Virus record (IMG/VR): IMGVR_UViG_3300009537_000005
Length of the DNA: 64,000 bases
From: a virus
Direction: 5' to 3' (one strand)
This document shows, in pieces, positions 7,045 through 63,857 of this stretch. The translations under genes were made by a program, and so were the position numbers. Position 1 is the stretch's first letter; each line of letters starts with the position of its first letter. The notes under the pieces are model-generated. The model did no database searches. It was given only the letters and a program-made list of their open reading frames with translations, and was not told the DNA's origin.

Positions 7045-7045
7045 T

Positions 7046-8886: not shown

Positions 8887-8892
8887 CTTAGT

Positions 8893-23013: not shown

Positions 23014-23276
23014 GCGAAGATAGTCCAACCTAATAGAGCCATAACTAAAGCAGATAGGGATGCGACGAGTCTCTCTAGTATCCCTATTCTCTTTCCATTT
23101 TCGGACTCCCGTTTCGCCAGCGTCGATATCATATCGGTGTTCTTGATGATACCTGCCAGCAGGATACGGTTGCTCACTCTCTGTGGCAAATCTCCTGCCG
23201 TTTCTAGGTCTCTGAGTTCTTGAAGTATTCCGTCGTTAAATGACATGATGTGCCTCTCTATCTTACGCCTCCACAT
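23010..23276 (-). CDS. lysis-associated membrane protein (holin or spanin candidate)
   Basis: C-terminal TM helix; immediately downstream of the endolysin gene on the same strand, with overlap. Confidence 0.35.
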   Translation of the reverse strand: MWRRKIERHIMSFNDGILQELRDLETAGDLPQRVSNRILLAGIIKNTDMISTLAKRESENGKRIGILERLVASLSALVMALLGWTIFA

Positions 23277-33002: not shown

Positions 33003-33839
33003 TTAATGTTCTTGTAATAGGGTTACGGCCCCATGAGACCACCCGGCAGTTATAATTTTACCGCCTCCACCGATGTAATAGGCCCGAAATCCTACTTCCT
33101 GTCCTGCGCTTAAATCTGCTATCGTAAGGACACTATGTGTATTTCCAAAAGCCGATCCGCCGGTAGCGGCTATTTTATATTTTAGCGCAAGCCATTTGTT
33201 ATTTGTATAATCCCTTATTCCCATAGACATATTAGAAATCGGGATTTGGATGTAAAGGTGTCCGGTTATCAAATAGAGCCCAGCCGTGCCTATTGTTACT
33301 ACGGAACTTCCGGTGCTAAACATATTTCCGTAGTCATAGTGTTCGCTATCGAAGTTTACGGCAAGGTCTGCGCCTGTCGAAAAACTCTGATTTGATGAGT
33401 GTTTGCAAGACACTGCATCTTTAGTTAGGTCATAATCAGCTAATGATGCGGCGAACCAAGTTTCGAATTCACCAGAACCAATAGCCAGAGTCGACGCAGC
33501 TAACACCTCCAGTTCAACCGTGTCCCCGGCACTAGCGTAATAAAATCCAAGTACAGCATTTTTACCTGTTCCGCTATTTGGATTCATCGTACCGCCAGCA
33601 ATCTCTACTGTACTGTTCACTAAGAGACGCATATGATATGTATAATTAACACCAGCAAGGTTTTGCATCTGTGCCGCGATTGCATATAGTCCGTCTTGTG
33701 GAAGACTTAAACGATTGTTAGCATTGTCCGCAACAGAACTGTAGTCCCAATCATCTGTATCGAAAGCAATGGTCTGCCACGATCCAGTTGTTCCTACGTT
33801 TTGAGTGCTGGCCGCGTAAATTCTACCGCCTACAGACAT
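33003..33839 (-). CDS. tail tube/sheath-module protein candidate
   Basis: ORF track; beta-rich. Confidence 0.4.
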   Translation of the reverse strand: MSVGGRIYAASTQNVGTTGSWQTIAFDTDDWDYSSVADNANNRLSLPQDGLYAIAAQMQNLAGVNYTYHMRLLVNSTVEIAGGTMNPNSGTGKNAVLGFYYASAGDTVELEVLAASTLAIGSGEFETWFAASLADYDLTKDAVSCKHSSNQSFSTGADLAVNFDSEHYDYGNMFSTGSSVVTIGTAGLYLITGHLYIQIPISNMSMGIRDYTNNKWLALKYKIAATGGSAFGNTHSVLTIADLSAGQEVGFRAYYIGGGGKIITAGWSHGAVTLLQEH

Positions 33840-44400: not shown

Positions 44401-45290
44401 CTCCGCAGGAATTCTTCTTTAACGGCAATGTCTTTCCATGCCGTATATCCAAGTTCGGATGCAAGCTCATTTCGATCTTTCGTAACTTCGTCTAGCGAAG
44501 TTGCGCCTGTAATTTGGTGTATAGCTTCCTTGAAGAAAACCGGAAATGCCTTGAGTGGACCTACGTATCCCCTCCATCTCTCTAGTTCTTCGTCGGTAAC
44601 TAATTTATCCTGTTGTAGAGAAGCAATTGAGTTTAGATACGCAGGACCAGTAACGTCAACTTTCCACCATCTGTCTAATTCTTGGGCTCCTAGTCCTATA
44701 AAGGAAACGAACGAACCAACTGCCCGAGGGATAACGTTAAGAACACTTAGCTTGTCGCCACCAACAGATTCGGCACCTTCCCAGCCTGCTCTAATCCCCT
44801 CGGCGGCAATACCCAATAGTGCCATGAAGGACTGTCCGTATTTCTTCCCTGCTGTGGCATTGCCGGCTTCTGCCTCAGTGTCCCAATAATCGTATACGTC
44901 CTTTACCTGGCCCAACGATGCCTTTAGGGCAGGATTATCGTCCGGCAGTTCAGTCCTGTCTTCTGTGAATTTGTAGGAGATTCGTGCCCAAATGCCCTTC
45001 AAACCGGGACCAAAATCGGGCTTTCCGTTGAACTGCCAACCACGAGCGGTTTCCGGCAGTTCTTCTCCATTCGGACCAAAAATGGCCGTCTTGTAGTCCC
45101 AATCAGTGGGCATTCCTCGATCATCGTACTCTCGCGCGACGCCGGGAAAAGGACTGTTGATAGAGTTTAATTGAGCTCGCCAATCTTCGGGACTTTCGTA
45201 ATTGTACGTGAACGATGCTTTAATCGACTCAGTTTGTGGCACCGTGCCTGCCGTTGCGCCAAATGCTCCTTTTGCTTTTCGTCTTGCCAT
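38478..45290 (-). CDS. giant 2270-aa virion-associated protein (function unknown)
   Basis: Single uninterrupted ORF between the LysM protein gene and the scaffold promoter; mixed helical and globular segments; no motif I can assign. Confidence 0.6.
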   Translation of the reverse strand: MARRKAKGAFGATAGTVPQTESIKASFTYNYESPEDWRAQLNSINSPFPGVAREYDDRGMPTDWDYKTAIFGPNGEELPETARGWQFNGKPDFGPGLKGIWARISYKFTEDRTELPDDNPALKASLGQVKDVYDYWDTEAEAGNATAGKKYGQSFMALLGIAAEGIRAGWEGAESVGGDKLSVLNVIPRAVGSFVSFIGLGAQELDRWWKVDVTGPAYLNSIASLQQDKLVTDEELERWRGYVGPLKAFPVFFKEAIHQITGATSLDEVTKDRNELASELGYTAWKDIAVKEEFLRRVAAGEDPRLLAMELEDPLEELMGEFLFDPLNLISLGAKKLLPLAADLGAFGDGVKVARDGKRLMRAIDVAAEGGDVGKIQKATAELLQWINDGARRAVDDIAGDARRAEDLGGLRGLLTETADSLQNTLTENMSDTIHQLVSLTEGPDDAVRLMNDLSKLLDSNLEDVARLEALENVQNAIKGTNIPKNLLFGENAQRTAHVWRRLMGDNNGKRIVELLDEAGGDIVKTNQLLADELKRITNDIFPTIGRRIEEHGKYTELLKSGKAEDVAKANKILETKPWAANAPNQLHQTLHQIYSKVRPAYRAAGKAQGTLFMGLNPAYRMRNRMGNFAVLFVDVSPKAAAESFFENPWSRKWARNTLNDYLGGFAPAAERRGIGGGAAASFDAGDWMKGKFNYFATKASEDEVIAGTHVMARSVKRFMNRFLTPKYALQGLDQLVKNPGDVKVLQRLIKKHYGDVNKALVEFADARGVDNLSNLLFLNDRQLAILEKLHLDDAVRKALNPSLSRQEQATRLNEIVNQHQGRGFLASGEGVIRRDPRYIEEIADIEKGMGGIRGNRLGDLFERKVHTAQVMVDEASAALDDTLRMVGDAVHNHFTRGARSVDEAKSMGRKAKDFMFNVIQESKKKADSVMAGETGVRRTMLNFRTQVWKWNDEVTEMQHISILDLWHKQRGWMGPVPEFAEELPKADLNRMFKNSLWRGYTEKATREYWEGFLGQMNHYMDGIEKFKHVLDPEGTGEISKLIEPMLERVRRKHSLADAMHRTVMDGNGNAILRVGANELEDLLIDTWMIRKAASKALEPEGLEATAETVRRFIHNIRTQAQDGTFDPKETMGLLDDVLGEAIKDVAGSEARAEEMLRILAGKEPDSALTIRLLEEEKTTIFLGGQTRDSIKFQMRELQTEINMLNNPAGDWGELREGSEVLVTGFGDKPLRVSVDSLPYTTPGGQDKIYVNTPLGRRSVKRSQISIPDDVAENANRYNELSARMNRMEKRLKTAPEQLEEVRQAEIAEIDRRIKAIQDGLDVEQTAIRSAIAERYVKVNEADLPQSMQDEFFFTEDIYRIDLGDGDYALFQPQFKTNKGMGWRPGKFVVPEAQRGRGVGTKFMDEMKKLSDEFKLEMGIQPDTKDLHRFYDQIDGLIIDEAEGGRRYLYTPRTDPPERFSTPIIAAMDDATPTVARSDYATFPQVKKSIDEVLAHLNTLDDSPQLSPHRAAYSNEEWARLREGASGIQEKINEVRTMAGQVAVKERDFALHNYGKRYGFDMVAGLIFPYQFWYSRSYAKWMKRMVQTPAILTHYLQYRRFLEKKHAGLPDWWKYQMNTNDLFGLDAENPLYFNLEAMINPLHGLTNVDFTDPQRRKDWWGGAMEDIQKMGPSVWTPFTYGLAAYYSLQGEEEAAARWAGRLLPQSKAIRDITALVDPQGLGIEIDPAVHLWGGGDPLAFTGSKVGVEAYERGRVGRQLGLMVNEGKWTEAEIIEAAYRQEGEIWDVARARAIHDRASHWGLIAGQFMFGVGAKPRPEGDIQIDTMYKEMRNLIAHRPDVSEENYAKGWNMLREAYPFLDTILLAKKGGLERDEALAWNVLNRIPPGMSFEMAKVANMDYDTITQFRSNKGDLSELSEAQRLDFMGGVMQLGALLDVPPDATRRDWDRASQEYSDMMAHGEKVFGEDIWQKVDLYYASFDESNQDAMRNFLKANPIVQEALDFKQMTINGSPSLMTYYGSVEKLEKFYKGQFYQTVEQVFGDNIWDKWSVYHELKDMGETKAANKYFKDNPELKGYLVMRDEMLPIIDQKVLELGDTIEERQGPFFRGEENVIDPNVEIQSFNVDEQQRWISDQVMSYAQGQSANNRTQADVVDHIRAQADSLWPSTKQSARRYYKIVNSNPNGAASMLQENAELETRVRWEFDRILRIALAREGELEASAARYQSELEQMGVQGQSPTAFENLAPGPLKRLLNDPDGLPPHLWELLGGR

Positions 45291-47143
45291 TATCCTACCG
45301 CCGGTGCGCCGATGCGCCAGTTGTATAGAGTGGTTCCTTGTCCACCACCGAATCCGCCTCTGGTACCACCTCCGCCTCCAGTAGGAATGGTGTTAAAGAC
45401 AGAACCAATGCCCAGAAGAGAAGAAACACCACTATTTGTTGGACTAGAAAGTAACTGTCTGTTAATCCAAATGTCTCCAACATTACGTTCCCAACCTTGT
45501 TCTGTCAAAAAGTCCTCTACTTCTTTCTTTGTAGTGATATCACTAAATTCACGAAGGGCATCGGGATCAGTATTCATAAGGCCCAGAAGCCGCATTAGAT
45601 TGTCGCTCTGAACACCAGAAATTCTCGGATCGTGTAGAGCTTTTTCTATAATAGACATAGCCCACAATTCTCCGTCGGCTAGCGCTCCTAAAAAGGCTAT
45701 TCCGTCCTTTACTTGCTCTCCAATTTCGTCAGGTCGTAGCATTCCTTCAGACATTAGAGTACCCGCTGTGATTGCCACATTCATATCCCAGTTTTGTTGC
45801 ATACCCAAAAGCACGTCTGGCCGCTGGGCTGAGTTTTGAAGAGTAAATTTTTTCTCTCCCAATGTGATAGGATTATTCCATCGGTGAATCATTTCGTCTG
45901 TCGTTACTTCTGCCGGTTCTGTATTTACGCGCGCATCAATGGCCTCCGGACTACTTGTTGATGTCGCCTTAAATCCAGTCATGTGTACTGCTCTTTGTAT
46001 AGCTTGGTCAGGCTCCATTCCTCTTTCTATAAGTGATAGCATGTAGTTCACTTGTCGTTGTGTCATACTAGTAGGTAGATACCGAGTAGTAATCTGATCC
46101 ATTATTTCTTGGGCTTGAACAGACTTCGGGTGAGTAGGGTCTGGCTCACCGCCTAATGCAGTGTAGATTTGACCGGCCACCATATTTTGGCGAACTTTTG
46201 TAAAGTCAATAATAGTTCCAATTTCAAACGGACCTTTCTCAGTTCCGAACGCCAGTCGAACTGCCTCGTCGAACGGTACTCCATTACTAACCATTTCCCC
46301 AACGATTGCTTCTCGCTCGGCATTGGTCATGTCTGGCGAGAATCGACTGAGAGGCACACCACCAACCACTTCTGGTTGACCTTCACCTTCTTGTCGGATA
46401 CCTCTAGCCTCTCGTAACTTTCTTATCGCTTCTATGTCGAGGGGTATATCCGCTTTGTCCACAACGCGGCCGGTTCTGATTTGAGGACCGCCCTCTGCTA
46501 TAGGCTGTCTTGGGATTAGTTTGTCTCCGCGCCTTCTAGCGCCCCGAATCACGCCGAATCGTTCTGATCTTGGTCTTTTTCTTAGTCTATCCATGACATC
46601 TTTGGGTAAAATGTCCTCTAGTCCAACGGTACCACTTTCTAGTTGCGCCTGAAATTCTGGGCTTATGGCAGGTGTAATCTGTGCATCTCGTCCGGCCTGT
46701 GCAAAGTTTGCTAGTTGTGTAGCCGAAAATTCTAATTTTGTTAGTTGTGGGGCTTCTCCCGTCGCCGGTTCAACAAGATCGCTAACAAACGGCGCTCCTC
46801 CGTCCTGTTCGAAAAGCCCTTGGAGATTTAGCCCCTGTGCCGCCGCTCCGTATCCTCCTCCGGGACCTCTATAAAATTCTCCTATTTCTCTTAGTCCCTC
46901 TCCCGGAACGCCAGTAACAGAAAACGTCCCGGCAGAATATGATCCGCTAGCAATTCGTTCCGCGGCGACATTTCGCTGTTGAGCGCCAAAGCTTTTGGTA
47001 GGAAGCTGAATTCTTTGTCCGGGCATAATTAAATCAGGATCACGAAGTCTTGGATTGGCGGCCACTAAATCCAAAAGATTAATGCCGGCCCGCCGGGCAA
47101 TTTTTGCTAAACTGTCTCCACTTCTTATTGTGTATGATGGCAT
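45290..47143 (-). CDS. LysM domain-containing 617-aa protein (minor head / MuF-like or peptidoglycan-binding ejection protein candidate)
   Basis: N-terminal YTIRSGDSLAKIARRAGINLLDLVAANP...PGQRIQLP is a canonical LysM motif; immediately downstream of portal; C-terminal Gly-rich tail. Confidence 0.55.
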   Translation of the reverse strand: MPSYTIRSGDSLAKIARRAGINLLDLVAANPRLRDPDLIMPGQRIQLPTKSFGAQQRNVAAERIASGSYSAGTFSVTGVPGEGLREIGEFYRGPGGGYGAAAQGLNLQGLFEQDGGAPFVSDLVEPATGEAPQLTKLEFSATQLANFAQAGRDAQITPAISPEFQAQLESGTVGLEDILPKDVMDRLRKRPRSERFGVIRGARRRGDKLIPRQPIAEGGPQIRTGRVVDKADIPLDIEAIRKLREARGIRQEGEGQPEVVGGVPLSRFSPDMTNAEREAIVGEMVSNGVPFDEAVRLAFGTEKGPFEIGTIIDFTKVRQNMVAGQIYTALGGEPDPTHPKSVQAQEIMDQITTRYLPTSMTQRQVNYMLSLIERGMEPDQAIQRAVHMTGFKATSTSSPEAIDARVNTEPAEVTTDEMIHRWNNPITLGEKKFTLQNSAQRPDVLLGMQQNWDMNVAITAGTLMSEGMLRPDEIGEQVKDGIAFLGALADGELWAMSIIEKALHDPRISGVQSDNLMRLLGLMNTDPDALREFSDITTKKEVEDFLTEQGWERNVGDIWINRQLLSSPTNSGVSSLLGIGSVFNTIPTGGGGGTRGGFGGGQGTTLYNWRIGAPAVG

Positions 47144-49274: not shown

Positions 49275-50996
49275 TTATAGACGCGTCTCAACAAAACCAT
49301 GAAAAGGATTTTTCTTTTTGGACCTCTGTCCTAGTTGTCGTACTGGGTCAGCAAATGAGATCAAAGCGTGGTAAATAGCATAGTAAATGGCGTCTAAGAT
49401 ATCTGCTGCCTTATCACCGCGTTTACGAATATCAGGATATCGTTTCAAGACCTTTTCTACTTCCGCCAAGAAAATGGCCTGTTGCTGATCTCCGACATGG
49501 TCTTTGTCTAAAAGCACGACTCGTTCGCCTGCAAACATGGGTTCGAGATTCATTTCCCATCGCCGTTCTTTGCTTTCACTTCCGGGTGTAACTCCCCAGA
49601 TAGGCATAGATTGATGAGTTGTTCGGGCTAAGATGTGCATAAACTCTTTACCGCCGGCCGCTTCTTCAATTTGTACTGCTTCCATATTGTTGTACTTCGT
49701 CCAGTATTCGAGAGTTAATCGCTCCGCCTGTGATTGTGTTACCCGCGCAACTACTCCATCAATGATGATCCATGTTCCGCTTTCTGGATGTTGAGCAATC
49801 ACAACCAGCGCAAAGTAGCTTCGTTCTGACCCCGTTCCTTCTCCAGCCGCGTAGTCACAACCAATTCTGTGAAACCAATAATCTTTGTGTATTTGAACTA
49901 CTCTAAACGTAAAGTGCTTATCGAACTCGCCTACTAGCTTTAGTAAACGATTTTTCATAAATTCCCGCTTGCCTGGCGATGTGTCGGCATCATAAATTGC
50001 TTGAATAGCCTCAACAGGAAATACCTCAGGACAAGTTGGTGTTCCCGGCCACGTTCCTTCAAGAGTAATCGGGGTTTCAATCTTTATATATTGTGGACTC
50101 TCTGGAAGCGTCTGCGTTAGGTCGTCGTCGTTCCAAGGTGTCCCAATCATACCCAGACGGCTTGTGGGCTGACGTGTGGGCTCCACTTCTGATATGAAGC
50201 GAGTTTTGATCGTCTCTGTTTCGTTCAGCGTTTCGCCGGCCCGGTGGAGGTCGTCCGCCAGCATTAAATTCGAAGTTCTGGAACCAAGAACACCGGCACC
50301 TCCAATACCAAACTTCGAGATGGTCGGTGACGTCCTTGATGCCTCCATCAACGCCCACTCGTCTTCAGGAACGGTTGTATCAATAACACTGTAACCCGTT
50401 CCGGCGCTCCATTCGCCTCCCGCTTGGCCTGGCCGCGACTTCGGTACAACCTTCGGAAACCACAGCTTCCATGCTGGGTTGTTAACGATGATATTTGCTA
50501 TCCCTTCTGCCGCTTTGCGAGCCGGAGCATCTGCCACTCGTATAATCAAATTTTCAAGGTGGGGATACAGGCCAGTTCCATAAACCATTAGGTTCCTCAT
50601 GAAAATTGATTTTCCAAATCCACGACTAGCAATAATTACCGGTGAAACTCGTTTTGACCAACATTGCCAACAGTGATCTGCCCACTTTTGTTGGTGGGAT
50701 AACAAAGGAAGGGTAGTCGCCGTAAGAAAAAACAATGCGAACCCCTCTGGACTGTCGGCTTTAATTTCTGGGTTAGGAATGGGATTTGATCCATAAGTTG
50801 GGAGTAGTTTCCATTGTTTGGGCGATAATGCGCCCTCGGGAGCTTCTATATACCAGTCGTGTTCTACTTGTCTGAAGAATTGGAAGAAGTCTCGCCCAAT
50901 TGCTTCGCTTATACGCTTTACTTCATTTTCTATTGCTTCGGGAGATACGATTGCTCCTTGCAGGGCATTATCCAATAAAAGCCTAATTTGGATCAT
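49275..50996 (-). CDS. terminase large subunit
   Basis: Walker A ASRGFGKS, Walker B LMLADDL, C-terminal RNase H-like nuclease region; 573 aa. Confidence 0.75.
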   Translation of the reverse strand: MIQIRLLLDNALQGAIVSPEAIENEVKRISEAIGRDFFQFFRQVEHDWYIEAPEGALSPKQWKLLPTYGSNPIPNPEIKADSPEGFALFFLTATTLPLLSHQQKWADHCWQCWSKRVSPVIIASRGFGKSIFMRNLMVYGTGLYPHLENLIIRVADAPARKAAEGIANIIVNNPAWKLWFPKVVPKSRPGQAGGEWSAGTGYSVIDTTVPEDEWALMEASRTSPTISKFGIGGAGVLGSRTSNLMLADDLHRAGETLNETETIKTRFISEVEPTRQPTSRLGMIGTPWNDDDLTQTLPESPQYIKIETPITLEGTWPGTPTCPEVFPVEAIQAIYDADTSPGKREFMKNRLLKLVGEFDKHFTFRVVQIHKDYWFHRIGCDYAAGEGTGSERSYFALVVIAQHPESGTWIIIDGVVARVTQSQAERLTLEYWTKYNNMEAVQIEEAAGGKEFMHILARTTHQSMPIWGVTPGSESKERRWEMNLEPMFAGERVVLLDKDHVGDQQQAIFLAEVEKVLKRYPDIRKRGDKAADILDAIYYAIYHALISFADPVRQLGQRSKKKNPFHGFVETRL

Positions 50997-51710: not shown

Positions 51711-51969
51711 AACTTCCCTTAAATTCGGGGTCATTTATCGCAAAATTCGCTCCCAAAGCGGCCAAAAGTTGTAAAATATCTGTTCTAGTGATCGCCGGAT
51801 CAGTTATTGATAGTCTTGTGTACACTTCTTCTACCAAAGTTCGCATTTTCGAGCGCTCAGAGCGTTCCATTTTCATTAGAGCGCTCGAAAACACTTTTCG
51901 GCCGGTGTATTGAAGTTCGGCGGCGAGTTTACTTGTTGTACTTCCCATTTTCTTGCTCCATAAGCTCAT
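51706..51969 (-). CDS. hypothetical small protein
   Basis: ORF track. Confidence 0.3.
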   Translation of the reverse strand: MSLWSKKMGSTTSKLAAELQYTGRKVFSSALMKMERSERSKMRTLVEEVYTRLSITDPAITRTDILQLLAALGANFAINDPEFKGSS

Positions 51970-53161
51970 CTAATAGCGCCGTCGTTTCTTCAAAGTCCTC
52001 CAGCCAATTCGTTCGGATAACAAAATCTATCAAATGTTTATTTCCTTGTTGAACAAATGACTTATACGGCAAATCTTCCCACGTACCAACCAGATTTTCT
52101 TCGACCGGGTCTTCTCCAAGCGGTTCTCCTCTGGCTTGTGCTTCCTCTTTACTCGGGCTGGCATATCCATACGTCATGTAGCCATGGTAATTTTCTAGTC
52201 TTCCAGGCATAACGTTCTGTGCATAAGCAATAAACGTATCTTGAGGGAAATAAACCTCAATTCCATGCGCCGCGCATTGTCCTAACCACCATTCCATACC
52301 CGGTCGTTGTTGAAAATATTCTGTTTCTACCTGCTCTAGTTCGCACCCATAAATTTCAATACGTTCCCAATCCTTCACACCAGTTAATTTTTCATAAATT
52401 ACCAATGCAAGCATATAACTGAATGTCGAAGCGAAATACTGGTGTACATAACCAGCGCCTCGTGGTAATTTATCACCAATCAAAAGCTCACAGACCTCTC
52501 TCAAAGGAAATTTTACACTATTCGGAACGTCCGCAAAGTGCCTCTGCATGTAAATTTGAGGTACTTTGCTCTCTTGTAGCCATTTCCAATGGTCTTCTGC
52601 GTATCGAGTTCGTCGTCTAGTGAATCTCCAGCGATGGTGAAGCTGGAACCAGCGATCAAATAACGATATTTTTTCTTTAAAGATGACAGCGGAGTCATTC
52701 AAACCCCACCATTCGTCGATGCCAGTCTCGTTCCATGGTGCCAAAGGTCCACTTCGGCTGTGTGTACCCATCATCACAACAGTTTTCTTGTCCTTTCGTT
52801 GTTTCATTCGTTCTCGAATTGTGATCGGATGTGCCCTAGCAACGTAATCATATGCCATTTTCTTTTCTCTCGATGACGAGGGGCGCTCTGTCGACGGTAT
52901 GTTGAAGTTTGCTTCGCCGTCTTCGTTCACAGTAAGCGCCGTATGATTGTTGCACATCGGACAATTTATCGGATGAGTTCCAACCGGCATCATCGGGATA
53001 CTTACATTGAAGTTAAGTTCATCTCCACGAACCGGTGCCATTGGATTTGCTTGTCCATGCGCGCTTCTTTTGTGATTTCGTAGCGCCGCCACAGACCCAA
53101 ACTCCTTTTCGCATAGTGGACATTTCTTCTTTTGTTTTCTAGGTCTATTTCTTTTCGTCAT
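51929..53161 (-). CDS. hypothetical protein with an N-terminal C2H2-type zinc finger
   Basis: CPLCEKEFGSVAALRNHKRSAH. Confidence 0.4.
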   Translation of the reverse strand: MTKRNRPRKQKKKCPLCEKEFGSVAALRNHKRSAHGQANPMAPVRGDELNFNVSIPMMPVGTHPINCPMCNNHTALTVNEDGEANFNIPSTERPSSSREKKMAYDYVARAHPITIRERMKQRKDKKTVVMMGTHSRSGPLAPWNETGIDEWWGLNDSAVIFKEKISLFDRWFQLHHRWRFTRRRTRYAEDHWKWLQESKVPQIYMQRHFADVPNSVKFPLREVCELLIGDKLPRGAGYVHQYFASTFSYMLALVIYEKLTGVKDWERIEIYGCELEQVETEYFQQRPGMEWWLGQCAAHGIEVYFPQDTFIAYAQNVMPGRLENYHGYMTYGYASPSKEEAQARGEPLGEDPVEENLVGTWEDLPYKSFVQQGNKHLIDFVIRTNWLEDFEETTALLDELMEQENGKYNK

Positions 53162-53913
53162 TAGAATGCCGTCACTGGGGCAATGGGCCCGAACTTTCTC
53201 GATGGTAGTCTACGACGAAGTGATAGAAAGATTCCATTCTTGTAAAATATCGACCAGTCCTCGTTTTCGTGGATGATCTTATTCACGCCGTGAAATACAT
53301 CTGGATAGCCTTCTTCGTAGTTGTCGAAACCGATATAATCTGATGTCCGCTTGCTTACATTCTCGAAGTCTTTATACGGCATATCTCGCATATGATCGCC
53401 ATCAATGTAAGCAGTAACAAAATTATTTTCTTCCAATTCTTCCGGCCATGGATCGGAGTACTTCTGAATTAAATTTAACTTCACGTCAAACAGCTTGGCG
53501 TTCTTTCTCAACTCCTCTGGGGTAGCGACAAGCAGACTTTGATCTTCTTTTGGTTGACCGGTAGTGGGGTCTATAATTCTAATGTCCTCCTCCCTTTTTT
53601 CAGCGTCGTACGGATCAATACAATATACTTCTCCTTCTAATCCCAACTTTCGTTTTACAAGAGCCACGGCGATGGCGCTTGCTCCAAACAAAGTCCCAAT
53701 CTCTACGTGGTCTCCGTCGCCGGCGTTGGCAACCATGCTCATCAGGAAAACCAAACTCGCTCCGCCATCGGCAATTCTGCCTGTAAATTCCTTATCTTTC
53801 ATGCTCTGATTAAGTTCTTGCATAACTTTAAATACTTCTGGGTAAATCCTCATTACTTGGCCTCCGGTAATTTCGCCGCGCCTTGGGCGACAGCAATTTC
53901 TGCCAATTCCCAC
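53161..53913 (-). CDS. class I SAM-dependent methyltransferase (TylF/MycF-like O-methyltransferase)
   Basis: GDGDHVEIGTLFGASA Rossmann SAM-binding segment and YIDGDH metal/substrate motif. Confidence 0.45.
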   Translation of the reverse strand: MGIGRNCCRPRRGEITGGQVMRIYPEVFKVMQELNQSMKDKEFTGRIADGGASLVFLMSMVANAGDGDHVEIGTLFGASAIAVALVKRKLGLEGEVYCIDPYDAEKREEDIRIIDPTTGQPKEDQSLLVATPEELRKNAKLFDVKLNLIQKYSDPWPEELEENNFVTAYIDGDHMRDMPYKDFENVSKRTSDYIGFDNYEEGYPDVFHGVNKIIHENEDWSIFYKNGIFLSLRRRLPSRKFGPIAPVTAF

Positions 53914-54599
53914 TCTTCACGGGTATTGATGTCGAACCCTTCCCATTCGTCCACAACAAACGGAACGATGATTGATCCAGCTATGCTCCGTGTTTCGTAA
54001 ACGGTTTTCGTTCTGGCAAATTCCATACCAGCAGTTTGGACGTAGACATCAAACAGAGATTGAGTTGGTGAACTGTGCCACGGTTGAAATTCTGGCCCCA
54101 TAGGAAACAAGGGCAATAGTAGATTGTCTCGAATAACCCACATCTTGCCTGGGTGTTCTGATGCTCGTCGTACAGTTCTTAAAGAATCCGCCTCTTGGCG
54201 AAAATAGAATTCTGACGCTGCCGCCGAAATTAGACTTGCGCTTCGGAATGGACTTGTTACTCTTAAAATAGCAAATACATCTGCTGGATCGCCATCTTCA
54301 TCAAGTTTTTGTAGCGCCCACTGTACCCATTCGATATCCGGCGAATTGTCCTGTACTGTGTAATTTGGACGTTTCCACGGAACTGATGCTCCGTAGTCCT
54401 TGGCTATTTCGGCGTGCACGTCGCTCTTCACAACCGCTATAACTCGATCAAAAACACCACTGTTGATGGCCGCTCGAATTGTGTACGCCATAAGCGGATG
54501 TCCAGCCAAAAGTGCCTGTTCTTTATCCAGTCCGTCAATTAGACCTACTCTACTCCCACCTGCCCGAAGTGGAATAAACGCTACCGTATTTGTTCGCAT
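53853..54599 (-). CDS. cytidylyltransferase of the CMP-nonulosonic acid synthetase (NeuA/CMP-Kdo synthetase) family
   Basis: N-terminal AFIPLRAGGSRVGL (compare NeuA IPARGGSKGL) and FDRVIAVVKSD. Confidence 0.55.
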   Translation of the reverse strand: MRTNTVAFIPLRAGGSRVGLIDGLDKEQALLAGHPLMAYTIRAAINSGVFDRVIAVVKSDVHAEIAKDYGASVPWKRPNYTVQDNSPDIEWVQWALQKLDEDGDPADVFAILRVTSPFRSASLISAAASEFYFRQEADSLRTVRRASEHPGKMWVIRDNLLLPLFPMGPEFQPWHSSPTQSLFDVYVQTAGMEFARTKTVYETRSIAGSIIVPFVVDEWEGFDINTREEWELAEIAVAQGAAKLPEAK

Positions 54600-55591
54600 T
54601 GAAGTAATTCTCCTTTTTTCACGTCTCTATCCAACCGATGACGCACAAATTTTGCTACATTTAACTTGGTTGGATACAAACCCCCCGGTTTCATGGGAGA
54701 CTGTATCGCTATATGATATTCTTTTATTTTCGTTCCTTTTTTCAAATCCCTTCCCCAATAGAGACTATGTGCCATTTTTTGAATCGGCGCAATTTCGGAC
54801 TTCATTGGTTGGTCTCGCCATTCTAACGCCCTGGCTGTGCGGTTTAGGTACTTAACGTACTGTTGGAGCCCGAAAAACTCCAAAGAGAACCTGTGGTCGG
54901 TTCCTTTTGCGTTGTGATCCAAGGTTATGTGCTTTTCAAAGACTCTGGCTCCAAGAGCATATGCCGCCGCCCCAAGCTCAATCCCATCCTGGTGGTCTGA
55001 CAAACCAATTGGAATGTACGGGAATGTTTCCTGAAGAACCGAAATCCTTCGAAGATTCATCATATCAGGTGGACAGGGATACGCTGCTACGCAGTGGAGG
55101 ATTGTTAGAGGATAATCCACAGGAAAAAGCGATACAGTTCTTATTATCGAATTTACAGACTGTCCTCCTACTGACATAATTGTCGGTTTGCCTGTTTTTA
55201 CAATTTCGCAAACTAAAAGATGATTTGTAACGTGGGCCGACGCGATTTTGTACTTACTAACATCTAATTTCTCTAAAAACTTTACGGATGGAATATCAAA
55301 CGGAGTAACGAAAAATTCTAGACCTTTTGATTCCGCGTATTGCTTTAGGGTCTCAAATTCGCTGGTTCCGAACTCTAGGGCTTCTCTGTGAGCCCCATAA
55401 GTCGGTCCGTAGCCATCATATGGCCTATTAAACATTTCGTCCGTATATAAACTTCGATTGTCCCGCTTTTGAAATTTTACGGCGTCTGTACCAGCTAGAT
55501 GTGCCATATCAATCAGCTTGTGAGCATCTTGAAGACTGCCATTGTGATTACCGCCAATTTCTGCTATGATGTAGGGGCTATTGTTGTCCAT
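54581..55591 (-). CDS. NeuB-family nonulosonic acid synthase (sialic/pseudaminic/legionaminic acid synthase)
   Basis: YIIAEIGGNHNGSLQDAHKLIDMAHLAGTDAVKFQKR is the classic NeuB signature; C-terminal SAF-like segment. Confidence 0.8.
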   Translation of the reverse strand: MDNNSPYIIAEIGGNHNGSLQDAHKLIDMAHLAGTDAVKFQKRDNRSLYTDEMFNRPYDGYGPTYGAHREALEFGTSEFETLKQYAESKGLEFFVTPFDIPSVKFLEKLDVSKYKIASAHVTNHLLVCEIVKTGKPTIMSVGGQSVNSIIRTVSLFPVDYPLTILHCVAAYPCPPDMMNLRRISVLQETFPYIPIGLSDHQDGIELGAAAYALGARVFEKHITLDHNAKGTDHRFSLEFFGLQQYVKYLNRTARALEWRDQPMKSEIAPIQKMAHSLYWGRDLKKGTKIKEYHIAIQSPMKPGGLYPTKLNVAKFVRHRLDRDVKKGELLQCEQIR

Positions 55592-55802
55592 AAAGTATTA
55601 ATCCTAGTATTCCTAGTACTACAAGAGAAGTTATTGATACAGCAATCCACGCTAAAAATAACTCCACATAGGTATCGCCAAAATAATCGTCTGGCTGTCC
55701 GTCGTTGTCTTTGTCTTGCCAAGGCCACTTCACTATAAACCTCCTGTTGAAAATCCACCGTCGCCGTTCCATAGTGATGTAGTAGTAAGAACGCCGTTCC
55801 AT
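55578..55802 (-). CDS. small membrane protein
   Basis: ORF track; one TM helix. Confidence 0.3.
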   Translation of the reverse strand: MERRSYYYITMERRRWIFNRRFIVKWPWQDKDNDGQPDDYFGDTYVELFLAWIAVSITSLVVLGILGLILYGQQ

Positions 55803-55984
55803 GGTGATGTAGTAGGGAAAACCAAACCACCCGACCGAAAGTCTGGTGTACCGTTGGAACTGGCGACATATTTCGATAGTTCTGGCAGTCTACTTGCCGG
55901 TAGTCCCGCTCCACATCCCGAACATTGCAACTGGGTTTCCCCGTCGTTCGCCTGGTTGCAATATTCACATTTTATTCTTCTCAT
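55733..55984 (-). CDS. small zinc-ribbon protein
   Basis: CEYC...CSGC. Confidence 0.3.
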   Translation of the reverse strand: MRRIKCEYCNQANDGETQLQCSGCGAGLPASRLPELSKYVASSNGTPDFRSGGLVFPTTSPWNGVLTTTSLWNGDGGFSTGGL

Positions 55985-56130
55985 AATTTATTCCCCTTTC
56001 CATTCAAAGGTTGTAACATATAGAATTCCTACGAAGCATTTGAATATAGAAAATCCAAATGATCGTGCATCTTTCCACTCTGTCGGTTCATTCCACGTAA
56101 AAGCAATTGGTAAAGTGGGAAACGGTTGAA

Positions 56131-56904
56131 TTACCATGCGCAGTAACCTCCGTCGATCAAAACCTGCTGGCCAGCAAACTCTGGACACTCTATTGCGAAT
56201 CTGAGGGCGGCTCGCCAACTTTGTTCGCTAATTGCTCTACCCAACGGAACGTTTTTAAAAAACTTTTCTTTGAATTCATCGGGAAGTCCCTTATCCAGCG
56301 GTCCGAAAGCAATGGTAACGGACCGAATATTGTGGCTTCCGTACTGTACGGTAATTGACCTTGATAATTGAATAAGTGCCGCTTTCGAGAGGTTGTAGGC
56401 AACTGGTTTTTCAAATCCCTCGTCATAGTTCCTCCAATCGGCACCAATGTTACCCATGATGCTACCAATGTTGATTATTACTCCTCCTCCGATGGCCTTC
56501 ATCCCCGGAATAAATGCCTTTGCGACATTAGCCGACCCGACAAGGTTCACATTGAGTATTTTTTCCATGTCTCCGAAAAAAGTGGCTCCAGAGCCGGGTG
56601 GATTGTCAATCGCCGCGTTGTTAACCACAACAGATGGTATTATGCCCTCTTCAAACAAATCGGCGGCATAGGCTCGCAACAAATCGGGGTTTGTTACATC
56701 ATATAGAGGCAAATCATAGCTAAAGACCTCATAACCCATCCGTGTTAGTTCGTCTATCCAGATTGGCCCCACCCGTCCGCTTCCGCCCGTTACTACTGCG
56801 TACTTCACGTACGTCGGTGGGGATGCCAATGAGGCCAAGCTTCTTTCCCAGTCAAAGTTAAAGTATTCTCCTACTTTCCAGTTGACCATTGTGTCTTGTT
56901 TCAT
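56131..56904 (-). CDS. short-chain dehydrogenase/reductase (SDR)
   Basis: TGGSGRVG Rossmann motif, NNAA, catalytic YNLSK (YxxxK). Confidence 0.7.
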   Translation of the reverse strand: MKQDTMVNWKVGEYFNFDWERSLASLASPPTYVKYAVVTGGSGRVGPIWIDELTRMGYEVFSYDLPLYDVTNPDLLRAYAADLFEEGIIPSVVVNNAAIDNPPGSGATFFGDMEKILNVNLVGSANVAKAFIPGMKAIGGGVIINIGSIMGNIGADWRNYDEGFEKPVAYNLSKAALIQLSRSITVQYGSHNIRSVTIAFGPLDKGLPDEFKEKFFKNVPLGRAISEQSWRAALRFAIECPEFAGQQVLIDGGYCAW

Positions 56905-58166
56905 GCCGATATCCTCACATACGTTGGTTCGCTTTTCTTTAACGCTGTTTTGAGGGTCGTATATATTTCATCAGGCGCTGGTTGGATTACATCCATTAAA
57001 TTTCCGATATACTCGGCGTCGTCAAGGCTTTGATGACTGATACCCGGCCCGGATGGGTCTAGAGGCCCCGCCATAGTTCCAATGTACACTACAGCTGTTC
57101 CTTCAGTAAGCTGGTTGTAAATTTGTTCGAATGCCCGGCGAATGAAACAAGCATAGGTAGCAAAAATCGGCTTTTGTCCCATCAAGGCGCGGGCCGAGGC
57201 AAAGGAGACTGCGTTTTGCTCCGCAATACCAAAGTCAAATACTCTATCAGGAAATTTTTCGCGAAGGTCGTATAAATGGAGGTCTCGCGCAGTATCGGCC
57301 GTAACCAAAATAACATCCTCATCGTTTTCCATAATCTTCTTGACCGATAGGCCCAGGGCTTTCATCTTTGAATTTTCTGGAAGCTCCGCTCCGGGCGCTC
57401 CGAAATGTGATTCTACTGTTCCTTCAAATTCCGTTCCCTTTCCTTTTGTTGTTATAAGAACAACCAGCCACGGGCCGCTCTCGCGATGCTCCTCTACCGT
57501 ATCTAAAATAAGATTAATCTCATCTAGGTCGTTTCCGTTCTCTGTACCTGCTACACTCCATCCAGCACCAACAAACATTTTTACAATTCGGTCTGTTGTG
57601 AGTTCAGTGGGCCCGTCTTGACTGAATTGGTTATAGTCGACGATAGCAACAATATTATTGACTTCATAATTTGCTGCCGCCAAGGCCGCCTCCCAATTCT
57701 GTCCCTCCATCATCTCCCCGTCGCCTAGAAGGACGTAAACCATTCTATCTTGGTCGAGGGCAAATCCAAGGGCTTTGGAAAGCCCCATTCCCAACGAACC
57801 GGTATTCGCCTCGATTCCGGGTATGTCCACGGTGGGATGACCGGGCAGGCCACCGTTGTTTCTGAAAGTATCCAACCGTCCCACATCAAGAATCCCACTC
57901 TCGGCCAGTACGGCATACTGTGCCAATGCGTCGTGTCCTTTTGAGGAGATAAATATGTCATCTTCATCCATCCTGTCCCTGATCGCTACGATAGCATCCA
58001 GCGACGATAAGGACGTTCCTAGGTGCCCCTTGCCCGCTTTCTCGACGATTTCAATAATTCGGGCTCGTAGCCGCTCGATCATTTCTTTACGTTCTTCTTT
58101 AGTGCCGCTAAGTGCTTCGTCGTCTTTTGTACTGTCGGGTGTGTCTTCTTTTCTTTTATAGGGCAT
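56901..58166 (-). CDS. transketolase-like thiamine-diphosphate enzyme (TPP-binding and Pyr domains in one 421-aa chain)
   Basis: GH...GSLGMGLS TPP-binding region and FGIAEQNAVSFASA pyrimidine-binding region. Confidence 0.65.
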   Translation of the reverse strand: MPYKRKEDTPDSTKDDEALSGTKEERKEMIERLRARIIEIVEKAGKGHLGTSLSSLDAIVAIRDRMDEDDIFISSKGHDALAQYAVLAESGILDVGRLDTFRNNGGLPGHPTVDIPGIEANTGSLGMGLSKALGFALDQDRMVYVLLGDGEMMEGQNWEAALAAANYEVNNIVAIVDYNQFSQDGPTELTTDRIVKMFVGAGWSVAGTENGNDLDEINLILDTVEEHRESGPWLVVLITTKGKGTEFEGTVESHFGAPGAELPENSKMKALGLSVKKIMENDEDVILVTADTARDLHLYDLREKFPDRVFDFGIAEQNAVSFASARALMGQKPIFATYACFIRRAFEQIYNQLTEGTAVVYIGTMAGPLDPSGPGISHQSLDDAEYIGNLMDVIQPAPDEIYTTLKTALKKSEPTYVRISA

Positions 58167-58737: not shown

Positions 58738-58939
58738 AGGTCTTCTCGTATAAATATGCCGTTACAATCGCCATGAGGCCGTGCTATAACGTCCGGCGGT
58801 GTGATGTCGAGCGGTACTTCCAATTCCCACTGGGCGTCACAAAACTGGCAATCATAGGTATAAATCCAGGTTCCGTCCAATTAAGTTCTCCTGCTTAATT
58901 TACTCTAGGTTAAGTGAAAAGGCTTAACTCCCCTTCACC

Positions 58940-58972
58940 TATATATTGGGACCAAAACCTCGTTTTGTCAAC
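58940..58972 (-). promoter_or_regulatory. minus-strand promoter of the TTGACAAA family (sugar-cluster operon)
   Basis: Reverse complement reads ggggTTGACAaaacgaggttttgGTCCCAATATATAggtg. Confidence 0.55.
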
Positions 58973-59039
58973 CCCCAAATTCCTAGGTGATGCCTAATTT
59001 ATACCAAGGTGAATTAAAAAGTACTCTCCGCAACTTTTG

Positions 59040-59440
59040 ACGGGTAACGCGGGAATAAGGAGAGATGTAGACCTACTAGGGGGGTACCCTTCCAACCGAC
59101 CTAGGACGCAAATTCTGTGTGTGTGTACAAGCATAATAGCCCCACGGGGTGTATGGGAGTGGGGGTAGAGTACCGCTATATGTGGGGGATAGGGGTGAAA
59201 ATGGGCTAACCGGGCGGGGGTGGGGCGGATTCAGCACGTAGAACAAAGAAGAATCACGTAGGAGAAGGAGGAATCACGTAGGGATCGGTACAGTAGGGGG
59301 TCTAAGAACGATTCTAAGGGGTAGTTATGGGGTCTGTGTATGGTGGAAAGCCAATTCGCACCCCGCATGCTGTTAGGATGATAGTGGGGGGAATCAAAAC
59401 ACCCCATCCAGTTAGTAGAATGGGGTGTTTATGGGGGATC
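59040..59440. repeat. G-tract-rich noncoding island (C-rich on the transcribed minus strand)
   Basis: At least 12 runs of G4-G6 on the + strand within 400 nt; GT dinucleotide repeat; direct repeat GAATCACGTAGG x2 (59253, 59273); no ORF on either strand. Confidence 0.6.
59397..59435 (-). terminator. intrinsic terminator of the minus-strand gene 59448-60119
   Basis: ACACCCCA-N14-TGGGGTGT hairpin, followed on the minus strand by TTTTGATT. Confidence 0.5.
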
Positions 59441-59447
59441 GTGTGGA

Positions 59448-62595: not shown

Positions 62596-62668
62596 GTCCT
62601 CTTAGTCTAGAGGTCTAGGACACCGACTTCTCAGGTCGGGAACGTAGGTTCGAATCCTACAGAGGACA
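62596..62668 (+). tRNA. tRNA-Glu (CTC), isolated copy
   Basis: GTCCTCT-TA-GTCTAGAGGTCTAGGAC D-arm closely resembles bacterial tRNA-Glu; anticodon arm CCGAC-TTCTCAG-GTCGG; T-arm GTAGG-TTCGAAT-CCTAC. Confidence 0.65.
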
Positions 62669-62783: not shown

Positions 62784-63857
62784 ATGAAGCTCAAGAAACA
62801 CGAAATAGTCGAATGCAAATCAAACACTGACGTAACAACACTATCACAAGTAGGAAGAGACGAAATTAGGAGGTTCTTGGGTATTGCTACCACCGGACGT
62901 TTTTGTTTTGGTAGGTGTTGTCCCATGCCGTTTAGTTGGTCTATAGAACAAAATGCAGACGACATACAACAAGGGTACCGAGGAAAGCTAACAACTAGAA
63001 TCTCTGCCTACGTATTTAAAACCACCGGTATGTCTTTATCTCCCCCGGAAAAACAACACATCGGTAACATTATCTATCAACATACAATACAGCCAGAAAA
63101 CTACCTGTTGAAAATGGACGACAACATCATAGGAATGGAAGAAGACAGGTTTGGGGACGGAGGGTCATGTTTCTATGGTGACAACGAGGGAGCGAGAGAA
63201 TTAATGCAAGATAATGGATTCCTCGTGGCGAAAATATACACAGAAGATGGGCATCCCAAAGCACGGGCATGGGCATACGAGCTCGCAAATCACGGTCTTA
63301 TACTGTTCAATGGGTACGGATTTGATGGCAAGTCTACGATTGAACACGCCAAAATAATATCATCCGTACTAGACGAACCGTATTCAAATGTAGAACTATG
63401 GAATTATGGTCAACGCTCTGGCCTTTTGTACCTAAATAACGGATCGGGTTATTTAGTAGGAGAATCAGACCTAACAGAATTCGACTTTCGCATAGACGAG
63501 GAGCCATATCAAAGAGGAGAAAGGTGTTATAGCTGCGGCGAGAGGGGCGCTTCATATTGGCATTGGGTAGATTATGAACAATACTGTGACCCGTGCTACG
63601 AAGACAACTTCTATGAGTGTAGCCAATGTGATGAGCCTGTTTCTATAGAATATGCCGAAAGGATCAACAATGGTGCATACCACCTTGAGTGCGCCTATGA
63701 TAAAGGATACACAAGATGTGAAAGTTGTGATGACTGGGCTTATAGACCAAGCGGACGGTATGATGATGATGGATACGAGATTCCCGTGTGTAATAGTTGT
63801 TCTCCTGATTTTAACACCTTAGAAGACTTGGAAGAGAAAGGAATACAACCCAGATGA
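62784..63857 (+). CDS. hypothetical 357-aa Cys-rich protein (multiple CxxC zinc-ribbon motifs)
   Basis: ORF track; SD GAAAGGAAAG; CYSCGERG, CDPC, CSQCDEP, CESCDDW, CNSC. Confidence 0.45.
   Translation: MKLKKHEIVECKSNTDVTTLSQVGRDEIRRFLGIATTGRFCFGRCCPMPFSWSIEQNADDIQQGYRGKLTTRISAYVFKTTGMSLSPPEKQHIGNIIYQHTIQPENYLLKMDDNIIGMEEDRFGDGGSCFYGDNEGARELMQDNGFLVAKIYTEDGHPKARAWAYELANHGLILFNGYGFDGKSTIEHAKIISSVLDEPYSNVELWNYGQRSGLLYLNNGSGYLVGESDLTEFDFRIDEEPYQRGERCYSCGERGASYWHWVDYEQYCDPCYEDNFYECSQCDEPVSIEYAERINNGAYHLECAYDKGYTRCESCDDWAYRPSGRYDDDGYEIPVCNSCSPDFNTLEDLEEKGIQPR

Follow-up and report, generated by a model that had tools for sequence, protein, structure and literature searches.

What does a phage do with a group of sugar-acid genes set beside its virion genes? 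The window, a 64,000-nucleotide stretch of viral DNA, carries on its minus strand six tightly packed, phage-borne enzyme genes (51929–58166). Five of these had been read in the first-pass annotation as a nonulosonic acid cluster, and they lie where it placed them; their domains are as foreseen and their catalytic motifs unbroken. The sixth had been overlooked. The explanation we favor, with moderate confidence, is a late-expressed, translationally coupled glycosylation module that would make, activate and methylate an acidic Kdo/Kdn-like sugar and transfer it, likely to virion proteins. Judged by its genes, the most probable product of the module is an unusual acidic keto-sugar, activated with CMP and formed via an uncharacterised transketolase-dependent route; less certainly, the phage may attach this sugar to its own particle proteins. 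What was computed is the set of genes with their domains and motifs, the fold, and the conservation in bacteria and in two lineages of phages; the features, all on the minus strand, are as follows.

56901–58166, minus strand: short transketolase-like ThDP enzyme, 421 aa (Pfam Transketolase_N 112 bits, Transket_pyr 74.5 bits)
56131–56904, minus strand: classical SDR, 257 aa (Pfam adh_short_C2 67.6 bits)
55578–55802, minus strand: small ORF flanked by the SDR and NeuB genes, at most 74 aa, with a C-terminus that is hydrophobic
54581–55591, minus strand: NeuB-family PEP-dependent ulosonic acid synthase, 336 aa (TIM-barrel domain PF03102, 216 bits against a Pfam gathering score of 22.1)
53853–54599, minus strand: CMP-ulosonic acid synthetase (cytidylyltransferase), 248 aa (CTP_transf_3 PF02348 21.8 bits; PseF model TIGR03584 E 7.6e-25)
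53161–53853, minus strand: SAM-dependent methyltransferase (Methyltransf_24 PF13578, 36.5 bits)
51929–53161, minus strand: putative CMP-sugar-dependent transferase, 410 aa (N-terminal C2H2 zinc finger, CxxC element, predicted GT42/Maf-like-fold core)
58940–58972, minus strand: promoter-like site of the first-pass annotation (TTGACA with a weak -10)

The module shares a single minus-strand block with the terminase, portal, capsid and tail genes and adjoins TerS, TerL and the portal gene. Its placement beside virion genes, as annotated, is borne out by TerL at 49275–50996 (phrog_38, E 2e-39) and the major head protein at 36049–37278 (phrog_1357); the replication block lies apart, on the plus strand. 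Genes within the module are joined by overlaps of 4 nt (transketolase-like stop with SDR start) and 19 nt, and by two TAATG stop/start junctions, one between the cytidylyltransferase and methyltransferase genes, the other tying the sixth gene, in the same orientation, to the methyltransferase gene. The likely methyltransferase start is the ATG at 53853, and the 230-aa homologues of phages L001 and L002 begin at the same methionine. The five annotated genes are co-oriented but not strictly adjacent, as a 540-bp stretch with the small ORF separates the NeuB and SDR genes. This ORF has a homologue at the equivalent position in L001 (phmmer E 4e-18) and no family match in Pfam or NCBIfam. The dedicated promoter proposed upstream is only putative: its hexamer is perfect and its -10 poor, it is absent from the output of the consensus promoter scan, and promoter-like sites in the region occur at chance level (21 found, 15 ± 4 expected).

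The synthase is a NeuB-family enzyme, as annotated. Its motifs AEIGGNHNGS, AVKFQ, GLSDH (H200) and FEKH (H221) are conserved in an alignment with PDB PseI (8h2c) and NeuB (6ncs); following the N. meningitidis NeuB structure, we take H200 and H221 to be metal ligands. The C-terminal SAF/antifreeze-like domain (PF08666) scores 19.6 bits against a cut-off of 21. The cytidylyltransferase had been placed in the NeuA/CMP-Kdo-synthetase family. It falls below the CTP_transf_3 gathering score of 22.6, but we keep the assignment because the PseF model, PDB NeuA (1eyr, E 1.5e-7) and bacterial homologues support it. It carries an IPLRAGGSR motif at residues 9–17 and is 48–52% identical to its counterparts in the bacterial operons described below; the sole bacterial one scanned (locus L097, 48% identical) scores 83.7 bits on PF02348. 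The SDR has the expected TGGSGRVG (39–46) and YNLSK (170–174) motifs and is 33.6% identical to the bacterial operon SDR; that the phage enzyme reaches only about 32–34% here weighs against the pathway proposed below. The fifth annotated gene does encode a SAM methyltransferase, but not of the TylF type it had been assigned to: in Pfam only PF13578 matched, TylF (PF05711) did not, and the best PDB match is 6g7d (E 0.034).

The transketolase-like ThDP enzyme, also correctly recognized at first pass, is made up solely of a PP and a Pyr domain. The chain stops behind the latter, and the C-terminal domain PF02780 of three-domain transketolases is absent. Phage homologues among the matches listed are likewise short (roughly 370–475 aa), and the N chain of a PDB split transketolase (6yak) matches with E 1e-41. 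All 36 homologues compared, from phages and bacteria, share residues H48, H78, H110, GDG148–150, N179, E316 and H378; from general knowledge of transketolases we take GDG...N as the ThDP-binding motif, the histidines as catalytic and the glutamate as that of the Pyr domain. Ketol transfer between sugar phosphates is the putative activity of this short transketolase.

A bacterial counterpart helps to place these enzymes in a pathway. Among 80 GTDB loci retrieved with the transketolase profile, 29 have NeuB and/or the cytidylyltransferase within 10 kb, with the consensus order NeuB, KdsC-like HAD, SDR, Aldedh, cytidylyltransferase, transketolase, often flanked by KpsC/S-like or other transferases. 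The six-gene operon was found here only in metagenome-assembled genomes, from many phyla, and its NeuB is 45–46% identical to that of the window. The HAD protein scores 117.8 bits as KdsC and 95.7 bits as Kdn-9-P phosphatase; the SDR best matches the sugar-acid dehydrogenases mannonate oxidoreductase, gluconate 5-dehydrogenase and KduD in NCBIfam, and 2,5-dioxovalerate dehydrogenase is the top match of the Aldedh. All proteins scanned, four from phages and six from bacteria, stay below the NCBIfam equivalog cut-offs. With its KdsC-like phosphatase and semialdehyde dehydrogenase, the operon points to a non-amino Kdo/Kdn-like ulosonic acid.

The search for an accompanying glycosyltransferase, suggested in the first-pass annotation, leads to the sixth gene. 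The predicted fold of its 410-aa product best matches the Campylobacter sialyltransferase Cst-I and a Maf glycosyltransferase, and on this modeled fold we regard it as a putative CMP-sugar-dependent transferase. Compared to Cst-I/Cst-II (GT42) and the Maf transferases (PF01973 fold group), it has no significant sequence similarity (hhalign probability 1.7% with Cst-I, 27% with an MptE-like domain), which leaves it outside GT42/Maf at the sequence level; its core has no Pfam or PHROG match. It has its own N-terminal zinc finger and belongs to its own large family, comprising 4,433 representative clusters and situated in phage head and tail modules. The window-clade transferase carries the C2H2 finger and a basic tail, KRNRPRKQKKK, features that could indicate nucleic-acid binding; family members outside this clade start at the core domain, without the zinc-finger region. 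Of the loci of 73 IMG/VR relatives, 17 have a GT2 gene nearby and 4 a Methyltransf_24 gene; NeuB, the cytidylyltransferase, the transketolase and the SDR occur near none of the 73 within the flanking DNA covered. A bond between the family and this one sugar can therefore be discounted.

The module as a whole recurs in phages. In the same phage clade, L001, L002 and L003 hold all six genes beside TerL and the portal gene, with a rearranged order in L002 and L003. The unrelated HK97-type phage L077 carries NeuB, SDR, cytidylyltransferase, short transketolase and methyltransferase genes between TerL and the genes for portal, protease and capsid. A non-homologous FkbM methyltransferase occupies the methyltransferase slot in this second lineage, and a relative of the transferase lies two genes after the L077 capsid gene. 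The second-lineage cassette is present, in whole or in part, on about 20 IMG/VR contigs; 12 of these also have a transferase relative, located inside the cassette in L167 and L169. By sequence comparison, the module has spread between unrelated phage lineages. Neither the KdsC-like phosphatase nor the aldehyde dehydrogenase known from the bacterial operon is present in the phage cassettes, so the phage product may differ or depend on host enzymes.

From these data we infer an order of reactions, a sugar structure and an acceptor. The NeuB-family synthase would condense PEP with an aldose phosphate to a 3-deoxy-2-ulosonic acid, Kdo/Kdn-like and non-amino, whose phosphate is probably taken off by a host KdsC-type phosphatase. 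The SDR and the dedicated short transketolase may then remodel the sugar. In the most coherent order, the SDR would oxidize the next-to-last hydroxyl to yield a ketol, and the transketolase would then remove or exchange the terminal C2 unit; alternatively, the transketolase may only provide an unusual aldose phosphate to the synthase. The sugar would next be O-methylated by the methyltransferase and activated by the cytidylyltransferase to a CMP-sugar. Finally, the sialyltransferase-fold protein would place it on an acceptor, for which capsid or tail proteins from the same late block are the likeliest candidates, resulting in an acidic, methylated glycan coat on the virion. A bolder, joint proposal is held only tentatively: that an undescribed ulosonic or ulosaric acid is the product of the transketolase-linked operon and of its derivative in phages (NeuB-type condensation, next-to-last-hydroxyl oxidation, transketolase C2 removal), and that the 410-aa protein founds a large unrecognized family of phage transferases decorating virions with CMP-activated acidic sugars. 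If this is true, glycosylation of virions with Kdo-like sugars would be a widespread trait among environmental phages.

Virion-protein glycosylation, one of the uses first suggested, appears the best-supported one, as putative glycosylation genes are embedded in the structural (late) module in the window, in L077 and in the wider transferase family. The other use suggested was remodeling of host surface glycans, as in superinfection exclusion; in our wording of this rival, the CMP-sugar would alter envelope glycans (LPS, capsule, flagellin) during infection, for such exclusion or to avoid trapping of progeny. Maf-type enzymes glycosylate flagellin, and the bacterial pathway homologues reside in loci for polysaccharides, alongside KpsC/S-like and other glycosyltransferases. 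We nevertheless consider a host-envelope target improbable, since the module heads the late structural block beside terminase and portal, the second-lineage cassette is inserted between TerL and portal, and cassette-free phages carry the transferase family among capsid, connector and tail genes. Furthermore, the Pfam census of the window contains no integrase family, and a search of 185,579 GTDB species genomes found no transferase relative, a result that speaks against life as a prophage.

Less probable still is the classical nine-carbon amino nonulosonic acid pathway of the first-pass annotation (sialic, pseudaminic or legionaminic, possibly methylated). The best NCBIfam matches of the synthase and cytidylyltransferase are indeed NeuB, PseI and PseF models, and their closest solved structures are PseI, NeuB and NeuA. 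However, the scores lie far under the equivalog cut-offs: 243 against 399.65 bits (synthase, TIGR03569), 207 against 340.25 (synthase, PseI TIGR03586) and 87.8 against 205.7 (cytidylyltransferase, PseF TIGR03584). PDB NeuB and PseI match the window synthase at 131 bits or less, much more weakly than the bacterial operon proteins. Of the upstream amino-sugar enzymes (NeuC, PseB/C/H/G or LegB/C/H/G), the Pfam census of the 42 other window ORFs shows no sign: it lists neither NeuC/epimerase_2 nor a DegT aminotransferase, an acetyltransferase or a 4,6-dehydratase, and the gene tables of L001, L002 and L077 have none of these either; the orthologous bacterial operon has its KdsC/Kdn-9-P-type phosphatase, sugar-acid SDR and semialdehyde dehydrogenase instead. 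We thus set aside the amino-sugar assignment in favor of a Kdo/Kdn-like product.

The zinc finger and basic tail of the window-clade transferase would also suit an enzyme that binds DNA and adds the sugar as a base hypermodification, and virus-encoded DNA-hypermodifying glycosyltransferases have a precedent (bioRxiv 10.1101/2023.12.21.572611). This is very unlikely, given that the window census has no hydroxymethylase, TET/5mYOX or thymidylate-synthase-like gene, that the finger is confined to one clade, and that the genes lie in the structural rather than the plus-strand replication block. Unlinked auxiliary genes that boost host pentose-phosphate/Kdo metabolism, with no phage-specific glycan, are scarcely credible: phages are known to carry pentose-phosphate genes and the transketolase catalytic residues are intact, but two unrelated phage lineages have kept the entire set in translationally coupled form, along with genes for a cytidylyltransferase, a methyltransferase and a protein of transferase fold.

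To our knowledge, most of the virion glycosylation by phage enzymes documented so far comes from mycobacteriophages, which take their sugar nucleotides from the host. With the module, a phage would be able to produce an acidic sugar of its own, activate and methylate it, and pass it on to an acceptor; we found no description of such a module in the literature searched. Two further finds come with it, a six-gene pathway widespread in bacteria and a large family of phage proteins of sialyltransferase-like fold. They could lead to a new sugar, to a use of transketolase that is new to glycan synthesis and to a new family of glycosyltransferases. The virion glycosylation loci of mycobacteriophages include an O-methyltransferase. 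Their glycosyltransferase genes reportedly lie among structural genes, and capsid or tail proteins are decorated (Freeman et al. 2023, Cell Host Microbe, via PMC12619734; PMC11256854). The window genes are similarly placed; unlike the mycobacteriophages, which use host nucleotide sugars and classical glycosyltransferases, the module would bring a complete CMP-ulosonic-acid pathway and a sialyltransferase-fold enzyme. In Kdo and Kdn pathways (KdsA/KdsC/KdsB; Bacteroides Kdn-9-P synthase, Kdn-9-P phosphatase and CMP-Kdn synthetase), PEP and an aldose phosphate give a ulosonate phosphate, followed by a YrbI/KdsC-family phosphatase and a CTP_transf_3 cytidylyltransferase. The bacterial counterpart operon shares synthase, phosphatase and cytidylyltransferase, but also contains a transketolase of its own, an SDR of sugar-acid type and a semialdehyde dehydrogenase, which have no known role in Kdo/Kdn synthesis; the phage version is without the phosphatase and the dehydrogenase. 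In the rifamycin AHBA pathway, a transketolase (Orf15) feeds the aminoDAHP synthase. That pathway likewise pairs a dedicated transketolase with a PEP-dependent aldolase, although the aldolase belongs to another family and the product is a different one.

The module comprises six enzyme genes, all carried on the minus strand:

56901-58166, minus strand: transketolase-like protein of 421 amino acids (Pfam Transketolase_N 112 bits, Transket_pyr 74.5 bits)
56131-56904, minus strand: classical SDR (Pfam/NCBIfam scan)
54581-55591, minus strand: NeuB-family synthase (PF03102, 216 bits)
53853-54599, minus strand: cytidylyltransferase (CTP_transf_3 21.8 bits, cut-off 22.6; TIGR03584 PseF, E 7.6e-25)
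53161-53853, minus strand: methyltransferase, Methyltransf_24 (Pfam, 36.5 bits)
51929-53161, minus strand: putative transferase of 410 amino acids (Pfam: only an N-terminal C2H2 zinc finger)

The first-pass annotation had described the five genes between 53161 and 58166, and these are confirmed as ORFs, by their Pfam/NCBIfam families and by catalytic or cofactor motifs present in all five proteins. Its NeuB assignment is borne out by PF03102, the cytidylyltransferase lies marginally under the CTP_transf_3 cut-off, and the methyltransferase belongs to Methyltransf_24 rather than to TylF, as had been proposed. The genes are tightly arranged, with a 4-nt overlap between transketolase and SDR, a 19-nt overlap between NeuB and cytidylyltransferase, and TAATG stop/start overlaps joining the cytidylyltransferase gene to the methyltransferase gene and the latter to the 410-aa gene. 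The SDR-NeuB interval measures 540 bp and contains a small ORF, which is kept in the relative phage contig L001. The GC content of the module (0.445-0.47) lies inside the range for the rest of the window. In the Pfam scan, the C-terminal PF02780 domain is absent from the transketolase-like protein. A frameshift truncation was ruled out, as the stop is overlapped by the SDR start and the phage homologues listed are all short.

Upstream of the module lies a 710-bp non-coding gap (58738-59447, minus strand). Around 59285-59235 it has the motif TACGTG(A/C)T three times, at a spacing of about 20 nt, and it also includes a C-rich tract and a TTGACA site. The gap may serve to regulate the late block. 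The dedicated promoter previously placed at 58940-58972 does possess a perfect TTGACA, but its -10 is weak, it is missing from the consensus promoter scan, and promoter-like sites in the region occur at chance level.

A bacterial counterpart of the module was recovered from GTDB with a transketolase profile. Among the 80 loci obtained, 29 carry NeuB and/or a cytidylyltransferase within 10 kb, and the transketolases of these linked loci are fused, full-length proteins that share 32-36% identity with the window protein. After clustering, the consensus order is NeuB, 177-aa HAD, SDR, 495-aa Aldedh, cytidylyltransferase and transketolase; 11 loci have the HAD gene and 19 the Aldedh gene. One such operon is:

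L097 5430-11845: bacterial operon with NeuB, KdsC-like HAD, SDR, Aldedh, CTP_transf_3 and fused transketolase

Frequent flanks are PF05159 KpsC/S-like proteins, a weak BFO_1060-family glycosyltransferase and epimerases. The operon is widespread but was seen in metagenome-assembled genomes only; these come from many phyla, with representatives in Melainabacteria/Obscuribacterales, Chloroflexota, Methylobacter, Deltaproteobacteria, Elusimicrobia, Actinomycetes and Acidobacteriota. The same arrangement is found within a polysaccharide locus on a 2-Mb bacterial metagenome contig. The window NeuB is 45-46% identical to the operon NeuB proteins and the window cytidylyltransferase 48-52% identical to its operon counterparts, whereas NeuB and PseI from the PDB are much weaker matches to the window NeuB (131 bits or less). 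At the level of sequence, these relationships indicate that the phage genes derive from the bacterial transketolase-linked pathway.

The NCBIfam matches of the operon provide insights into its chemistry. The HAD is KdsC-like (NF007019 117.8 bits; Kdn-9-P phosphatase 95.7 bits), the best matches of the SDR are D-mannonate oxidoreductase (172 bits), gluconate 5-dehydrogenase and KduD, and for the Aldedh the top model is 2,5-dioxovalerate / alpha-ketoglutarate-semialdehyde dehydrogenase (428 bits). The curated cut-off is reached by none of the six operon members scanned, so the NCBI models give the pathway no specific name. Together with the Pfam census, which found no amino-sugar tailoring genes in the window, these matches point to an aldose phosphate as the starting material and to a putative non-amino, Kdo/Kdn-like 3-deoxy-2-ulosonic acid as the product. 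For the bacterial operon, we could infer just one order in which every enzyme has the role typical of its closest named families. PEP and an aldose phosphate would first be joined in a NeuB-type condensation, after which the KdsC-like phosphatase would remove the phosphate; the SDR would then oxidise the next-to-last hydroxyl, giving a -CO-CH2OH ketol end, from which the transketolase would take off a C2 unit to leave a terminal aldehyde. Oxidation by the Aldedh would yield a dicarboxylic ulosaric acid, which would finally be activated with CMP. 3-Deoxy-D-lyxo-heptulosaric acid (Dha) was considered as the product and dropped, as its stereochemistry is not derivable from the data. Compared with this operon, the phage cassettes are without phosphatase and Aldedh and have two extra genes, one for a methyltransferase and one for the transferase. 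The missing steps may therefore be supplied by the host, or the phage product may differ, with a terminus that is O-methylated and not carboxylated. From CMP, the sugar would be passed on to an acceptor by the transferase.

Alternatively, the transketolase may only provide an unusual aldose phosphate for the synthase, and the rifamycin AHBA pathway is a precedent for a transketolase supplying substrate to a synthase. A classical sialic, pseudaminic or legionaminic pathway, as the first-pass annotation had proposed, is disfavoured. The synthase and cytidylyltransferase score under cut-off in the NCBIfam equivalog models of these types, the tailoring genes are absent from the window census, and the orthology is to the bacterial operon. 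As a whole, that earlier interpretation is supported in part and is revised here towards the non-amino acid.

The module is conserved in phages as a set. Its short transketolase homologues form a tight family, found in metagenomes only. The six genes adjoin TerL and portal in L001, L002 and L003, relative contigs of the same clade, and L002 and L003 have them in a rearranged order, an argument for selection acting on the gene set over simple synteny. A second cassette occurs in L077, an unrelated HK97-type phage (Terminase_4, PF03354 TerL, PF04860 portal, S78 protease, PF05065 capsid), where NeuB, SDR, cytidylyltransferase, short transketolase and an FkbM methyltransferase lie between TerL and portal, and a 263-aa transferase relative is encoded two genes past the capsid gene. 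This cassette, whole or partial, is present on about 20 IMG/VR contigs, 12 of which also encode a transferase relative; in L167 and L169 its gene is situated within the cassette. The methyltransferases of the two lineages, Methyltransf_24 and FkbM, are non-homologous, which suggests that methylation itself is required. Four further IMG/VR loci (L182, L186, L189 and L192) combine a split, N-terminal-only transketolase gene with an SDR and with a NeuB of more distant relationship (E about 1e-45), and may represent a third version of the transketolase-NeuB association.

The predicted fold of the 410-aa protein best matches Cst-I (GT42) and Maf. By hhalign, no significant sequence-level link to GT42 or Maf was obtained: the alignment with Cst-I (sequence identical to PDB 2p2v/2p56) is limited to FSYMLALVIYEK...RIEIYGCE with SGVYMCAIAIALG-YKTIYLCGIDF at a probability of 1.7%, and an MptE-like domain fused to a distant family member reaches 27%. 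A PDB profile search returned zinc-finger matches only, a BFVD fold search returned uncharacterised phage proteins only, and the domain fusions in 10 long family members were not informative. Since homology is not demonstrable at this level, the assignment as a transferase is fold-based, and we consider it moderately secure. The family is large: searching 1.84 billion representative proteins with its profile yields 4,433 clusters at E <= 1e-3, of which 3,058 remain at E <= 1e-10. In 73 IMG/VR loci encoding relatives (26-40% identity), the gene sits amid structural genes, with connector, portal and tail genes nearby and a protease-capsid fusion upstream in 36. A GT2 gene (PF00535, 24.9 bits) is near it in 17 loci, and four loci have a Methyltransf_24 gene at a distance of 1.5-2 kb. 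Within the locus DNA examined, genes for NeuB, cytidylyltransferase, transketolase and SDR are all missing from the 73 loci. The family therefore resides in virion modules generally and is not confined to the sugar of this module. This placement supports virion proteins as acceptor, and it weakens the claim of specificity for the cassette's product; for other family members, the donors may be CMP-sugars of the host, CMP-Kdo for example. No relatives were found in 185,579 GTDB species genomes, and hence these give no clue to a prophage or host.

The window represents a tailed phage very distant from cultured phages. Against 50,697 phage records, its TerL (49275-50996; phrog_38, E 2e-39) reaches a tblastn identity of 23-25% at best. 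Only three of these records have a NeuB homologue, and a DNA search of them with the module region gave no match. Neither NeuB nor the transketolase is on record by exact-protein look-up, a single-sequence NeuB search of IMG/VR gave no match, and PHROGs holds no family for NeuB, cytidylyltransferase, transketolase or the 410-aa protein. The module is followed by terminase, portal, head (major head protein at 36049-37278) and tail genes in a single minus-strand block, and replication genes (DNA polymerase A, RecA and others) are among the plus-strand ORFs of 2258-22827. Gene position and late co-orientation favour virion proteins as the acceptor. Remodelling of the host envelope is a possible role but a poor match to the position among late structural genes, to the lack of an integrase match in the Pfam census of the window and to the lack of prophage relatives among GTDB genomes. 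DNA glycosylation has the zinc finger of the 410-aa protein as its sole hint; this finger is missing from most family members, and the window census found no base-hydroxymethylation genes. A purely metabolic role is contradicted by the conservation of cytidylyltransferase, methyltransferase and transferase as a set.

Several further features of the window were observed:

38478-45290, minus strand: 2,270-aa ORF between portal-proximal genes and head genes, with no PHROG match or Pfam family
33003-33839, minus strand: 278-aa protein with a sub-threshold BclA C-terminal (C1q-like) domain (29.9 bits, cut-off 38) and a weak PHROG match to a minor tail protein
45290-47143, minus strand: 617-aa protein adjoining the portal gene, its N-terminal segment matching LysM-type transglycosylase/endolysin PHROGs
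23263-24153: separate GH25 lysozyme
4479-9127, plus strand: dense tRNA array (26 by ARAGORN; 22 above the Rfam gathering score) covering most amino acids, in an ORF-poor stretch from 4353 to 9183
9183-10826, plus strand: Ro60 orthologue (TROVE 169.5 bits, Ro60 vWA 216 bits) directly downstream of the array
62596-62668, plus strand: one further tRNA
62784-63857, plus strand: 357-aa ORF with a Cys-rich C-terminal half and many CxxC pairs, no Pfam family at E <= 1e-4 in the window census

The 278-aa protein may be the tip of a fibre and a possible target of glycosylation, and the 617-aa protein may be a virion-associated cell-wall-binding protein. Because bacterial Ro60 partners with tRNA-like Y RNAs, a Y RNA could, by analogy, lie among the tRNA-like genes or in nearby spacer.

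Among the full texts searched, we found no description of a transketolase-linked NeuB operon or such a phage cassette, of phage nonulosonic acid genes or ulosonic acids on phage particles, or of heptulosaric acid biosynthesis. Virion glycosylation is already known in mycobacteriophages (Freeman et al. 2023, cited in PMC12619734; PMC11256854). To this known glycosylation of phage virions, the module would add a sugar pathway that has yet to be characterised and a large family with a transferase fold that had gone unrecognised.
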